64,000 nucleotides of DNA from an uncultured Poribacteria bacterium (GTDB lineage: Bacteria; Poribacteria; WGA-4E; WGA-3G). Where the stretch lies: positions 4,608,001 to 4,672,000 of the forward strand of contig CATQHZ020000001.1 of assembly GCA_958296135.2 (NCBI GenBank), written 5' to 3'. Position numbers and translations under genes: made by a program. Below, piece by piece: positions 46,828-51,209 of the stretch. The notes under the pieces are model-generated. The model saw only the letters and a program-made list of their open reading frames with translations, ran no database searches and was not told the origin of the DNA. Each line of letters opens with the position of its first letter. Position 1 is the stretch's first letter.

Positions 46828-46899
46828 AAAATTCCGAATTCTTTGTCGAAATCAGGGTTTCAGGAAACAAATAATCCTGAAAAGACAGAGGATAAATCT

Positions 46900-49392
46900 G
46901 TGAAAATTGCATGGGATACTCAAAACGTCCCCTTGGAGCGTAGCACGAGGGAAACCTGTCCCTCGCGAGGTTTCCCTTGGATGCTAGTGATATTGCTGCT
47001 TGCGGCACAGCTCCCAGGCGACGTGTTCGCTGAAACGGAAACAGATGCCGCACACCGTAGCGCAACCGCTGTCAGAATTGACAGCGCGCCGCCCCAACTT
47101 GACGGCGTTTTAGACGACGACATCTGGAAAACCGCACCGCTGCACGAGGGCTTCCATCAACGCGACCCGGACGAAGGCAACCCCGCAACAGAACGCACGA
47201 CGTTCCAAATCGCCTACGATGACGAGGCAATATACTTCGCTGTCATGTGCTACGATAAGGAACCGGATAAAATTTTCTCCCGGCTTGTCAGGCGTGACGA
47301 TTACGTCACATCGGATAGACTTGATGTAATTCTGGATCCGCACTACAGCCGACAAAATGCGTTCTGGTTTACCGTCTATCCTTCCGGCTCCGTGACAGAT
47401 GGAGTTATTTCCAGCAGCGGTTGGTGGGATAATACCTGGAACGGCGTGTGGGATGTCAAAACGAAAATTCACACAAATGGATGGGCAGCAGAATATAAGA
47501 TTCCATATCATGTGCTACGGTTTGCACCAAAAGAGAAATACGTCTGGGGACTCCAGGTAACCCGAAATATCAGCCGAAAAAAAGAATACATCCTGTGGCG
47601 TTTCATTAAAAAAGATGAACCCGGCTGGGTGTCACGCTTCGGCGACTTGACCGGCATTGAGGACATTCATCCACCGCACCATTTGGAATTCATTCCCTAC
47701 GCGATGGGCCGGACAACGCGCAATAGCAACACCGACTTGTGGGGAAACGCTGGCACCGATGTCCAATACGGCATCACCTCCGGCATCACCCTCAACGCCA
47801 CCGTCAACCCCGATTTTGGACAGGTGGAGGCAGACCCGGCCCGCCTCAATCTCTCCGCTTATGAGGAGTATTTTGAAGAACGCCGCCCCTTCTTTGTGCA
47901 AGGGGCATCCATTTTTGGCATCAACGATTATAGCTTCTTCTATTCCCGGCGCATCGGACGGCAGCCCGGACATTTTGACATCCCCGACAGCGCAGAGGAA
48001 CTGAGCCGGCCCGAAGCGACAACCATCCTCGGTGCCGCCAAGATTGTCGGCAGAACGCACGGTAAAACCTCTTTCGGCATCATGGAGGCAGTAACTTCCC
48101 CCGAATACGCACAAATTCGGGAAGGCGGCAGCACCCGCGAGCATCTGATTGAGCCGTTGACGAACTATTTCGTCGGCAGACTCACGCAAGATGTGCTGGA
48201 AGGCAATTCCCGCATCGGCGTTATCACGACGGCTGTCAATCGGCAAGCCTCGCATCCCGCTTACGCCGGTGGGGCCGACTGGGATCTGAAGTTCGCCAAA
48301 GAACGCTACCAGATAAGCGGAATTGTCGCCGCAAGTCACGCAGGTGAAGAGGATAACCGCAAATCCGGCTACCTCGCGCACCTTGAATTTGACAAGCGCG
48401 GCGGATGGCTCAGACTGGATACCAATTTTAGAGCCTTCTCGCCCGACTTAGAGATAAATGACCTCGGCTACCGGCGGCGCGCGGATATGCTCGAGTGGAA
48501 TTACGACTTCACCGCCCGGAAAGAGAAACCCTTTAGCATCTTCCGGCGCGTCATCTTCGGGCTCTACGGGTGGCGCACATGGAATTATGACGGCGTGAAC
48601 ATCAGCAGTTACTCGGAGATCTGGACAGATGGCCGCCTGAAAAATTATTGGGACTATGAGCTCTGGGTAGGCAGAAACCTCACATCGTTCAGCGATGATG
48701 ATGTCCGACGCGGCGGAACGCTCATTAAAAATCCGCCGGGTTGGTGGATATTCACGCGCCTCGCTACCGATAGCCGTAAAATGGTTCGGCTCGATGTGAA
48801 TCCGGTTTTCTCATGGGATGACGATGGACGTTCGTATGACTACGATATACGACTCAGGCTGCGCATTCGCATCGCATCCAACATTGAGGTGAGCCTGGGC
48901 CCAGCCTACAATTATGCAATGAAGGACGCGCAATGGATAGACATGGTTGAAGAAACGAATCACGGGCAAACAACGAAACACTATGTCTACGGCGAGTTGG
49001 AAAGTCGCACGCTTGACTTCACAACGCGCGCGAATATTAGTTTCACGCCAACGCTCAGCCTGCAGTTTTACGTGCAACCCTTCGTCACTATCGGCGGCTA
49101 TATGAAATTCAAGGAGTTAGTTGAACCGATGTCTTACGCCTTCAAGCCTTATGAATTGAAGGAGAACCGAGATTTCCATCGGCGTTCGCTGCGCGGCAAC
49201 ACCGTGCTACGGTGGGAATTCCAGCCGGGGAGCACGCTGTTTCTCGTCTGGACGCAATCGCGCGAGGCCACGTTAGAACAGTTGGACGCGGCAGACCTGG
49301 ATTTTCGCCCAATCCACCGACTGCGCAGCACCTTCACCGATGAGGGAAAAAATGTCTTCCTCATCAAATGCCGATATTGGTTTGGGATTTAG
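46900..49392 (+). CDS. CBM9-like + DUF5916 outer-membrane protein
   Basis: PQLDGVLDDDIW, YDDEAIY, ATVNPDFGQVEAD, ERRPFF, FYSRRIG, LRWEFQPGS. Start uncertain (GTG 46900). Confidence 0.85.
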   Translation: MKIAWDTQNVPLERSTRETCPSRGFPWMLVILLLAAQLPGDVFAETETDAAHRSATAVRIDSAPPQLDGVLDDDIWKTAPLHEGFHQRDPDEGNPATERTTFQIAYDDEAIYFAVMCYDKEPDKIFSRLVRRDDYVTSDRLDVILDPHYSRQNAFWFTVYPSGSVTDGVISSSGWWDNTWNGVWDVKTKIHTNGWAAEYKIPYHVLRFAPKEKYVWGLQVTRNISRKKEYILWRFIKKDEPGWVSRFGDLTGIEDIHPPHHLEFIPYAMGRTTRNSNTDLWGNAGTDVQYGITSGITLNATVNPDFGQVEADPARLNLSAYEEYFEERRPFFVQGASIFGINDYSFFYSRRIGRQPGHFDIPDSAEELSRPEATTILGAAKIVGRTHGKTSFGIMEAVTSPEYAQIREGGSTREHLIEPLTNYFVGRLTQDVLEGNSRIGVITTAVNRQASHPAYAGGADWDLKFAKERYQISGIVAASHAGEEDNRKSGYLAHLEFDKRGGWLRLDTNFRAFSPDLEINDLGYRRRADMLEWNYDFTARKEKPFSIFRRVIFGLYGWRTWNYDGVNISSYSEIWTDGRLKNYWDYELWVGRNLTSFSDDDVRRGGTLIKNPPGWWIFTRLATDSRKMVRLDVNPVFSWDDDGRSYDYDIRLRLRIRIASNIEVSLGPAYNYAMKDAQWIDMVEETNHGQTTKHYVYGELESRTLDFTTRANISFTPTLSLQFYVQPFVTIGGYMKFKELVEPMSYAFKPYELKENRDFHRRSLRGNTVLRWEFQPGSTLFLVWTQSREATLEQLDAADLDFRPIHRLRSTFTDEGKNVFLIKCRYWFGI

Positions 49393-49465
49393 GGCTCGGT
49401 GCAGTGGCGAGAACTCTATGAGAATCTAGGATAACCTACCCTAATCTATCGATGTGCATTTTGAC

Positions 49466-49494
49466 TTGCATTCCGCTTGGATTTGTGGTATAAT
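49466..49494 (+). promoter_or_regulatory. sigma70 promoter inside the IS left end
   Basis: TTGCAT-N17-TATAAT with TG extension. Confidence 0.75.
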
Positions 49495-49497
49495 ATA

Positions 49498-49597
49498 GTT
49501 ACCGTTGGGAGGTGAGACCTACTAAGCGCGGCATCCCGCCGTGTCTCTCACCTCCACCTTACCTTAGTAGGAAGGAAAAACAACGGCGAACGGTGAC
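49498..49597 (+). ncRNA. Candidate pseudoknotted leader RNA upstream of tnpB
   Basis: Perfect stems 49508-49517/49546-49555 and 49518-49526/49563-49571 cross each other; closing stem 49498-49506/49589-49597. Confidence 0.55.
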
Positions 49598-49602
49598 GCT
49601 CT

Positions 49603-50817
49603 ATGACATTGAAAACGCATTTAATGGCGTTGGACCCGAATAATAAGCAGGCGACGCTGCTTGCAAAGCACTGCGGCTATGCCCGCGTTGCCCGTAACCA
49701 TGCGCTCTCGGAATTCAAGGCAGGACTCGACCGCGATGAATTCCTATCCGATATGGACTTGCGCAAAAGATTCAACGCCGTGAAAGACGAACGCTACCCG
49801 TGGTGCCGCGAGCTCAGTCAAAATGCATCGAAGAATGGGATTTGCACTCTCGGTGATGCAGTGAAACGCTGGGTCTCTAAACAGAACCGTTTCCCGCGCT
49901 ATAAGCACCGATCTGGTAGGATTTCCTACCAAGCTGACAATGGCGCAGGCACGGTGAAGGTAGAGAAAAAGCGTGTCAACCTCCCGAAGATTGGCTGGGT
50001 TCGGATGCGCGAGAAGTTACGATGGCGTGGCGAGATTCGTCGGTGTGTTGTCTCAAAGCGTGCGGGCAGGTGGTTTCTATCGGTTCTCGTGAAGGTGGTT
50101 TCCGACAGTGCGCCACGTGTGTGTTCTCAGCGCGGTCCTGTGCGTGTGGTTGGTGTCGATGTTGGCATCAAGACACTTGCTGTGACATCCGATGGTGTTG
50201 AGTTTGAAAACCCAAAGGCACTTTACCGATACCTGCGGAAGTTGCGGCGTGCGCAGCGTCAACTCTCTCGTTCGGTTTACCGAAGCAGGAATTGGTATCG
50301 GAAGCAGGTGCGCGTTCAGAAGAGTCACTATCGTATCTGCTGTCTCCGTGAGGATGCCCATCACAAGGCAAGCACGGCGATTGTAAAGGCGGCTGACGTT
50401 CTCGGCATCGAGCGTCTACGCGTGGCAGGCTTGTTGAAAAACCGCCGTCTTGCGAAGGCGTTGAGCGATGCGTCATTGAGCGGTTTCTTGACGATGCTTC
50501 GGTATAAAGCAGCGGTACACGGCGTTGAGATTATCGAAGCACCGTTGAACTTCCCGTCATCGAAGACGTGCAGTGCTTGCGGGAATAAGAAGACGAAGTT
50601 GTCCCTCTCGGAGCGGACATATCACTGCGAGGCATGTGGCGTGGGTATCGACCGCGACTTGAATGCCGCGCATAATTTAAGAACCCTGTCCGCGAGCTTG
50701 ACGGAGAGGGAAAACGGCTGCGGAGCGACTATAAGCCCTCAGAGTAGGCACACCTCGTGTGTCTCGGAGGCAAGCCGCATTGAAACAGCAACTACGACAG
50801 ATAAGAGGACAGGTTAG
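49603..50817 (+). CDS. tnpB: RNA-guided endonuclease TnpB (IS607/IS605 OrfB)
   Basis: ALDPNNKQAT N-terminus, RuvC residues GVDVG / IERL / DRDLNAA, Zn finger CSAC..CEAC. Confidence 0.95.
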   Translation: MTLKTHLMALDPNNKQATLLAKHCGYARVARNHALSEFKAGLDRDEFLSDMDLRKRFNAVKDERYPWCRELSQNASKNGICTLGDAVKRWVSKQNRFPRYKHRSGRISYQADNGAGTVKVEKKRVNLPKIGWVRMREKLRWRGEIRRCVVSKRAGRWFLSVLVKVVSDSAPRVCSQRGPVRVVGVDVGIKTLAVTSDGVEFENPKALYRYLRKLRRAQRQLSRSVYRSRNWYRKQVRVQKSHYRICCLREDAHHKASTAIVKAADVLGIERLRVAGLLKNRRLAKALSDASLSGFLTMLRYKAAVHGVEIIEAPLNFPSSKTCSACGNKKTKLSLSERTYHCEACGVGIDRDLNAAHNLRTLSASLTERENGCGATISPQSRHTSCVSEASRIETATTTDKRTG

Positions 50818-51209
50818 ATTAGAATAGATTTGTCCAGATTATCATAAGTTCTAGGGAGCGGTTTTTCTAGTTGAGCATAGAACAAAACAACTAATGCCTT
50901 TAAAACCCCCTTTAGGGGTGCAATATTTATAGTGTTTCAGAATGACACTTTGCGAACGTGGGCATAACAAAAATGCAGGACTTGACAATGTCAAGACGGC
51001 CTGGTAAGATTACGTCAGCATTACGTAGGGCGAGGGAAAACCCGGCGCGCGCGAATCGCCGAGGGTTCCCCTCGCCATGCCAAATAACTCCGTGATACCG
51101 TAGCGCGAGGGCCGTTACGCCGAAACTTTGTCATCTCTGCAGCCTCGCTGCAGAGATATCCACTGTCCCTCGCCAAGTTTCCAAACCACCGATAGGAAAT
51201 ACAAAAAAT

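Follow-up and report, generated by a model that had tools for sequence, protein, structure and literature searches.

The subject of this report is a folded RNA leader that precedes tnpB, the gene of an RNA-guided nuclease, in an insertion sequence (IS) of an uncultured bacterium of the Poribacteria, which live in sponges (GenBank assembly GCA_958296135.2, contig CATQHZ020000001.1). The stretch analysed, positions 4,608,001 to 4,672,000 of the forward strand, is 64,000 nucleotides long and is referred to below as the window. The element is, to judge from its sequence, a tnpA-less tnpB insertion sequence derived from the IS607 family, and it extends from approximately 49391 to 50862, limits that were set by comparison with other copies in the same genome. 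Its leader is a widespread and apparently undescribed RNA. The reading developed here, to which we give a little better than an even chance, is that the RNA acts in cis as a bistable 5' leader that would control both the translation of tnpB and the stability of the mRNA. This is the best fit because P0, the helix that closes the leader, is predicted to start at +1, because the 5' strand of that helix has two covarying partners, and because one of these partners covers the ribosome site.

All features of the element are on the forward strand. The leader begins with strand a (GTTACCGTTG, 49498..49507), the 5'-terminal strand of P0, which is recognised from the folds and from the covariation of the closing helix, where 49498-49506 pairs with 49589-49597 (GTTACCGTT : AACGGTGAC, nine pairs including one G.U). 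Next comes the region of stem S1 (49508..49555), in which 49508-49517 forms ten perfect pairs with 49546-49555 (GGAGGTGAGA : TCTCACCTCC) and which encloses strand S2a (49518-26) as well as an inner hairpin (49526/7-49543/4) with the loop ATCCC. The crossing helix, S2, joins 49518-49526 with 49563-49571, CCTACTAAG being the perfect complement of CTTAGTAGG. These four helices had been proposed in an earlier sequence-only reading of the window, which placed all of them correctly. RNAfold gives -45.9 kcal/mol for the nested part of 49496-49610 (z = -4.78), a value equalled by none of 200 shuffles. The same earlier reading held that two crossing helices of this kind were unlikely to arise by chance, and this is borne out by a scripted search for a closing helix, an S1 and an adjacent crossing helix, which scores 21-29 in 36 chosen natural leaders; of 720 dinucleotide shuffles, 661 could not be parsed at all, a single one attained the top score of 21 and none reached 22. 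When the search is applied to 57 tnpB loci of other Poribacteria, 28 score at least 22, although three of these (L054, L068 and L091) were parsed by the script at the wrong place, and loci with tnpA upstream either score low or do not parse.

Both crossing helices are kept and covary in homologues. The comparison is built on 28 distinct leader sequence types, with some per-type tests covering 27. When the strands of a helix are compared, free of any alignment and without correction for the relatedness of the sequences, cognate strands bind far better than non-cognate ones, with duplex energies of -8.07 versus -4.16 kcal/mol for S2, -15.73 versus -6.95 kcal/mol for S1 and -11.20 versus -5.65 kcal/mol for the closing helix, and in each case none of 10,000 permutations across the 28 types reaches the cognate value. 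MAFFT placed the helices out of register between leader classes, and model-fitted alignments were therefore used to count covarying positions. With the closing helix, S1 and the inner hairpin (33 sequences), 95.2% of cells are paired and 18 of 23 pairs have changed on both sides; with the closing helix and S2 (27 rows, one of them a spurious minus-strand row) the figures are 94.6% and 12 of 15. None of 500 shuffles did as well in either case, and slid controls leave 29-46% of cells paired in both alignments, although the counts come from alignments that are biased to structure, and the relatedness of the sequences means that the shuffle counts are not probabilities. In the 33-sequence alignment there are 41 G.U pairs to 5 A.C mismatches, and in the alignment of the closing helix with S2 there are 19 to 4, an excess that points to the sense strand as the structured one. 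Set within this variation are a few near-invariant positions, namely the basal G-C pairs of S1 and, in a further hairpin S3, the CC of its 5' strand (S3a) and the GG of its 3' strand (S3b).

The same pattern can be followed within the host genome, which is 5.19 Mb in size. The left end, promoter and leader are common to 21 in-genome copies, where they stand ahead of two tnpB families. The family of the window has 10 copies, eight of which yield full-length protein matches, and eleven more copies, at first taken for solo left ends, precede a second TnpB family, which shares 44% identity with the first and whose open reading frames (ORFs) are intact in 11 of 11 cases, at 404-411 aa. When the three leader types A, B and C, all from this genome, are compared, identity is 94-96% over the left end and promoter and 100% over strand a, with the inner hairpin at 89-95%, S1 at 70-89%, the S3 region at 71-85% and S2 at just 56-67%. 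Every change in the variable regions is compensated. Some leaders are mosaics: type D combines the S1 of type C with the S2 of type B, and at L011 a family-2 gene is joined to a type A leader.

Where does the RNA begin? The promoter (49466..49494) consists of TTGCAT (49466-71), a 17-nt spacer and an extended -10 element, TGgTATAAT (49486-94). The sequence-only reading had put a strong promoter before the leader. Of this the extended -10 element holds up, but TTGACT (49461-66), 22 nt from TATAAT (49489-94), is unusable as a -35 element, and TTGCAT is a weak one; the combination TTGCAT/TGgTATAAT is missing from the output of a consensus promoter scan. Across the leader types the sigma-70 consensus score is at least 9/12 in 25 of 27, with most at 10-12/12. 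S1 lies 12-16 nt past the -10 box in 26 of 27 types, and the seventh nucleotide past the -10 box is A in 25 of 27. Transcription is predicted to start at A49501, so placed that the core of strand a (49501-49507) falls within the transcript. On this promoter geometry the RNA probably begins with strand a, and P0 would include the very 5' end.

Strand a has a partner that is doubled in tandem. The first copy, a'1 (CAACGG, 49581..49586), closes a three-way junction and is the minimum-free-energy (MFE) partner when the RNA begins at 49501, and the second, a'2 (AACGGTGAC, 49589..49597), is the MFE partner when it begins at 49496, such that in the window copy the partner flips from a'2 to a'1 as the 5' end moves from 49496 to 49501. 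In 26 of 27 types both copies change along with strand a, and in the same number of types a'1 ends 9-29 nt and a'2 3-10 nt ahead of the AUG. The helix a:a'2 covers the Shine-Dalgarno (SD) sequence or the spacer beside the start codon. In the window, a'2 ends 6 nt ahead of the ATG and contains the SD-like GGTGA (49592-96), at -11 to -7, which is the likely SD and lies within the closing helix; in the genome as a whole a core SD is found in 47% of 504 ORFs, against a background of 9%, at about -15 to -9. The AGGAAGG that had been read as the SD lies about 28 nt ahead of the AUG and proves to be the 3' strand of hairpin S3. In class III leaders, by eye, AGGA overlaps the 5' edge of a'2 and GGGA precedes a'1. 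For transcripts from the predicted start, a nested model gives probabilities of 0.52 for a:a'1 and 0.32 for a:a'2.

Hairpin S3 changes how the crossing helix must be understood. It is a hairpin of 3-5 bp, formed between what had been taken for the connecting loop and the G-rich bases that lie right 3' of S2b, with S2b as its loop. In the window it spans 49557..49575, where CCTT (49557-60) pairs with AAGG (49572-75), it is present in the MFE folds, and its loop carries S2b (CTTAGTAGG, 49563-71), complementary to S2a. S3 has at least 3 bp in 27 of 28 types, and it covaries, the cognate duplex energy being -2.90 versus -1.63 kcal/mol for non-cognate strands (0/10,000 permutations), with examples such as ACCG/CGGU, UCCG/CGGA, UCCC/GGGA, ACCC/GGGU, CCUU/AAGG and CCA/UGG. 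In class II rows the base preceding the CC complements the base following the G run in 22 of 22 cases by eye (U..A in 17 and A..U in 5). The fold is accordingly modelled as a three-way junction, in which P0, S1 and S3 meet through linkers of 0-1 nt and S2 would be a loop-loop complementarity. The leader carries in one molecule two loops, those of S1 and S3, that are mutually complementary over 7-9 nt; S2 and S3 are mutually exclusive. Geometry adds a further difficulty for a knot, since in class III (6 of 28 types) S1 has 9-10 bp and the connecting loop 3-4 nt, so that a coaxial knot could reach about 28 Å against the 37-42 Å needed, with assumed values for the helix parameters and the span per nucleotide; in the other classes the length of this loop is borderline or adequate for both helices. 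Of the pseudoknot that the sequence-only reading described, the interleaved, covarying strands stand, and a knot in which both helices form simultaneously is doubtful, given that S3 competes and that the class III loop is too short.

From these parts a bistable leader can be assembled. Transcription from the former tnpA promoter would start at about 49501 and make strand a the first nucleotides of the RNA. The leader would then fold as a three-way junction closed by a:a'1 and bearing S1, with its optional inner hairpin, and S3, whose complementary loops could pair as S2. Alternatively, strand a would pair with a'2, the tandem copy of a'1, over the SD and the spacer before the AUG. In the a:a'1 state the ribosome site would be free and in the a:a'2 state it would be occluded, and competition between S2 and S3 probably biases the choice of state, through a coupling to P0 that we infer. 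The paired 5' end and the compact fold may also protect the long transcript, which must reach the 3' guide-RNA part. A strong promoter together with a leader that limits translation and resists decay would suit a transcript that is at once nuclease mRNA and guide-RNA precursor.

Several observations weigh against this account. Classes I and II have, by eye, no clear SD near the AUG, and occlusion of the SD is therefore firm only for class III and the lineage of the window. In the nested model, in which S2 is ignored and the thermodynamics are mixed, a'1 is favoured in only 15 of 27 types. There are copies that have multiplied with a broken S1 (L059, L063, L065, L071, L087 and L092) or a broken S2 (L061, L064 and L048), and in L053 all helices are weakened. 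Since such copies have multiplied, the structure of the leader is not needed for transposition, and for persistence it is perhaps not strictly needed. Finally, the patchy hypervariability of S1, S2 and S3 on a background that is 94-96% identical is not predicted by a purely cis-acting element. As to their relationships, the six broken-S1 copies are one subfamily with S1 mismatched and S2 intact, L061 and L064 are sister copies, with S1 intact and S2 mismatched, from the same genome record as that subfamily, and several of the tnpB matches of these broken-helix copies are only partial.

The context in which the leader is found also informs what it may do. Autonomous relatives carry, behind the same left end and promoter as the tnpA-less loci, a TnpA with MerR-HTH and Resolvase domains (Resolvase at 1.2e-20 and MerR at 2.1e-13 in the TnpA of L030), and its ATG lies about 7-9 nt past the -10 box. 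These relatives have no leader; the start codon of their tnpB is a TTG with a GGAG SD before it, and the gene overlaps the end of tnpA. The host genome itself holds a tnpA-linked copy, L105 (G000:C1:3725200-3726700), with the same -10 context, TGTGGTATAATATAG, and the tnpA ATG directly after it, although this tnpA is split by a stop. The leader thus replaces tnpA exactly, downstream of the tnpA promoter, as the sequence-only reading had supposed. In L105 the MerR-HTH part ends in the stop and the Resolvase domain lies in a separate ORF of 171 aa; this is the only tnpA seen adjoining these tnpB families here, in a genome that was not searched for an intact tnpA. The leader is moreover portable. 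Its design is also found behind a different left end with a subterminal hairpin, resembling an IS200/IS605 end, and it precedes TnpB clades that are merely 26-51% identical to the TnpB of the window. A third TnpB family in the host genome, about 54% identical, likewise has another left end and a leader of like design with unrelated helix sequences. A module shared by elements of differing left ends and transposition chemistry is likelier to be an expression device than a transposition signal, and the leader is more likely the former.

A simpler function for the same structure is that of a passive stabiliser or insulator, in which the paired 5' end and the fold shield the mRNA and guide-RNA precursor or block read-through translation, without any switching. 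The predicted +1 is indeed the first nucleotide of P0 in nearly all types, and in 20 of 27 types a transcript from the predicted start leaves the ribosome site less paired than one begun 40 nt upstream (mean unpaired 0.58 versus 0.41), as this explanation would have it. However, only 4 of 27 types have read-through transcripts that prefer the occluding a'2, and the explanation accounts neither for the two covarying partners of strand a nor for the complementary loops. It is considered unlikely.

Those complementary loops are the starting point for a slightly more unlikely proposal, that the leader associates with itself. Here the S1 and S3 loops would pair between sibling transcripts, hand in hand, into dimers or multimers that become more frequent with rising copy number, and control copy number through the P0 switch or through decay; each subfamily would in this way gauge its own transcripts and shut off TnpB synthesis by way of a'1 and a'2, and the variable, always compensated 4-nt core of the loops would serve as a code of specificity, or 'incompatibility', that frees new subfamilies from the control of old ones, a refinement that is just as unlikely. 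In phage phi29 pRNA and bicoid mRNA there are two complementary loops whose intramolecular pairing is hindered and which associate hand in hand. The loops of the leader are larger (7-9 nt rather than 4-6) and belong to an mRNA leader, and oligomerisation would be putative. Both strands of S2 lie in loops, and in class III the complementary strands take up the S1 loop and the 7-nt S3 loop entirely. That S3 covaries and precludes the knot in cis, and that the class III loop reaches about 28 Å at most where 37-42 Å is needed, both favour pairing between molecules, as do the 56-67% identity of S2 between types whose flanks are 94-100% identical and the presence of several S2 types in one genome. 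Against this, a compact side-by-side fold in cis or an S2/S3 switch is compatible with the simple geometry used, and S1, which is not expected to determine specificity, is also variable (70-89%). Mosaic recombination, as in type D and L011, or templated correction of quasi-palindromes could yield the same pattern.

Improbable, on the present comparisons, is a protein-binding operator, whereby TnpB or a host protein would bind the junction and feed back on its own translation. TnpB does bind RNA, and its guide scaffolds contain pseudoknots (PMC11061315). The near-invariance of the basal G-C pairs of S1, the CC of S3a and the GG of S3b is what a binding site might look like. Yet neither the sequence nor the layout of the leader recurs in the conserved 3' guide core of these elements, the TnpB clades that it serves differ so far that identity falls to 26-33%, and the A and B leader types do not, by eye, covary with their 3' regions.

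Could the signal lie in the DNA, as single-strand hairpins or inverted repeats that are read in transposition or replication? Inverted repeats are symmetric in DNA, and the transposases of IS200/IS605 read single-strand hairpins. But the transposase of the relatives is a serine recombinase that acts on duplex DNA, the module is common to elements with different left ends, and it occupies a fixed place with respect to both the -10 box and the AUG. The preponderance of G.U over A.C (41:5 and 19:4) and the multiplication of broken-helix copies also make a signal of this kind very improbable. Hardly credible is a small self-cleaving ribozyme with a nested double knot like that of hepatitis delta virus (HDV), a class that occurs at, and processes, the 5' ends of non-LTR (long terminal repeat) retrotransposon RNAs, for although the strand order S1-S2-hairpin-S1'-S2' of classes I and II and of the lineage of the window is HDV-like, as is the 5' location on a mobile-element RNA, none of 4,227 Rfam families, ribozymes included, matches the leader, class III has no P3-like hairpin, there is no G-rich segment for P1.1, P4 and the catalytic C context are missing, no unpaired core is conserved and the junction linkers are 0-1 nt. 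The ribozyme-like character suggested by the sequence-only reading is not supported.

Four other candidates were rejected. An omega-RNA mimic is contradicted by the 3' cores of the three tnpB families, which resemble one another but not the leader. A long-range interaction between the variable loops and the 3' region was abandoned since A- and B-type elements have, by eye, no matching 3' patch, and fold-back protection against outside transcription because, when read-through is modelled, a'2 is the favoured partner in only 4 of 27 types. For antisense control there is a minus-strand promoter-like site scoring 9/12 (49667..49640), but it lies in family-specific coding sequence, and with three such sites against 1.4 expected it was treated as chance. 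An RNA from this site (49640-49667) would run antisense across the tnpB ribosome site, and there is a weak terminator-like hairpin at 49601-49588.

How widely is the leader distributed? A covariance model, R3, built from 33 aligned leaders, has 15 matches in the host genome, all 15 of them ahead of tnpB, with no orphan copy. Of 151 Poribacteria genomes drawn from across the phylum, 90 contain matches at E up to 0.001, at least 1,195 in total, with a highest count per genome of at least 27; by family of genomes, matches were found in 74 of 99 in f1, 15 of 26 in f3 and none of 25 in seven other families, tallies that are underestimates given that neither class III nor the family-3 leader is picked up by R3, even when its filters are switched off. 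At 12 further leader loci that were examined, a tnpB homologue adjoins in 10, a truncated tnpB in one and a contig edge in one. A search of 20 viral tnpB loci with R3 gave nothing convincing, the best E being 1.1.

The suggestion that the RNA is undescribed, and that it is separate from the 3' omega-RNA, is supported by searches of Rfam and the literature and by the lack of likeness to the conserved 3' core. In a cmscan-type search of the window with the 4,227 families of Rfam 15, the leader had no match at E up to 10, and two chance-level hits fell elsewhere in the window (E 7 and 8). At gathering score there were no matches in 18 loci (71,306 bases). Rfam presumably holds models for group I introns, hammerhead, twister, pistol, HEARO, RAGATH-18 and the IS605-orfB motifs. 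A full-text literature search, with subscription journals and supplements outside its scope, found no paper on a tnpB leader.

Among known systems the closest in principle is IS200, where secondary structure in the 5' untranslated region of tnpA represses the initiation of translation (Ellis, Trussler and Haniford 2015, PMC4513863). The likeness is that a gene borne by an IS is held down by the structure of its own 5' leader. In IS200 a single stem-loop, with an antisense small RNA and Hfq, controls the transposase, whereas here the gene is tnpB, no conserved antisense promoter was found, and the leader folds as a three-way junction in which the loops are complementary and the partner of the 5' end is present twice. 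IS200, too, reportedly yields a stable structured RNA, its processed 5' leader. That an IS gene may be restrained by its own folded 5' leader is thus already known; the architecture, the gene and the scale are new. In the fold-back inhibition of IS10 and IS50, and in the mRNA of the type I toxin hok, the ribosome site is paired with a 5' sequence of the mRNA, and translation depends on which of the alternative pairings forms; the type I toxin mRNA of timPR is likewise said to be a structural switch. Those systems have a single occluding partner, unlike the leader, and the read-through test gives no consistent support for such a role here, with a'2 favoured in 4 of 27 types.

The tnpB transcript is also the source of other structured, pseudoknot-containing RNAs that IS605/IS607 elements encode, namely the omega-RNA (or reRNA) that guides TnpB and, in IStrons, a group I intron (PMC11061315; bioRxiv 10.1101/2023.11.20.567912). 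The omega-RNA is at the 3' end and the IStron intron spans the element, whereas here there is a 5' leader of about 100 nt, without likeness to the 3' core and without an Rfam intron or RAGATH-18 match.

Cas12 descends from TnpB, which is itself a compact genome editor, yet on the control of the natural expression of TnpB the literature search found nothing in print. With five covarying helices, a duplicated switch strand and complementary loops, the leader represents a large RNA family that lends itself to testing. Should it tune translation, it would explain how transposase-less elements can express a DNA-cutting enzyme from a consensus promoter without harm to the host, and it would be a compact natural regulatory part; if its loops act between molecules, it would be a new means by which a mobile element senses how many copies of itself are present.

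The element has several further parts. Conserved sequence begins at GGGCTCGG, where likeness among the 21 in-genome copies starts, and the left end occupies 49391..49460; AAYCTA words at a spacing of about 10 bp were noticed there by eye, and a repeat search of the sequence reports none. The tnpB gene (49603..50817) encodes 404 aa with the Pfam domains OrfB_IS605 (E 7.8e-21), the zinc-ribbon Cas12f1-like_TNB (5.7e-19) and HTH_OrfB_IS605 (8e-06), with such domains recognised in families 2 and 3 as well, and D186, E270 and D350/D352 are invariant in an alignment of the three TnpB families. The 3' end of tnpB and the right end (50690..50862, terminus ...GGGAGCGG) are the presumed omega-RNA scaffold. 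The core GGAGAG..AAAACGnCUGnGGAG of this region is conserved across three tnpB families; the region has no match in an Rfam search, and its fold z-score is -1.29. Likeness among copies is lost past 50862, which makes for a sharp right boundary. In the 21 copies the right ends read ...GCGG and the left ends begin with (A/G)GGGC, and the crossover can be placed only approximately. A GG dinucleotide is required by TnpA_S (bioRxiv 10.1101/2023.11.20.567912), and these termini fit the GG dinucleotide of IS607-type elements.

Several smaller insertions and repeats were seen alongside. The left end abuts the stop codon region of a gene for an 849-aa DUF5916/CBM9 protein (46843-49392). Three of the ten family-1 copies contain, upstream of the promoter at the equivalent of 49450/49451 in the left end, a 90-bp palindromic insert with terminal inverted repeats that resembles a miniature inverted-repeat transposable element (G000:C1:203001-203092, 3122189-3122280 and 4732688-4732779). 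Four family-3 leaders (upstream of G000:C1:3036359, 3386685, 1931247 and 4547723) are interrupted within the 5' strand of S1 by a composite insert of about 190 nt with small hairpin repeats, and the family-3 copies at 4517192 and 2951129 have a different, hybrid leader. Beyond the element, at 51024-51177, lies an unrelated repeat family with units of about 78 nt, which forms many tandem arrays elsewhere on the chromosome.

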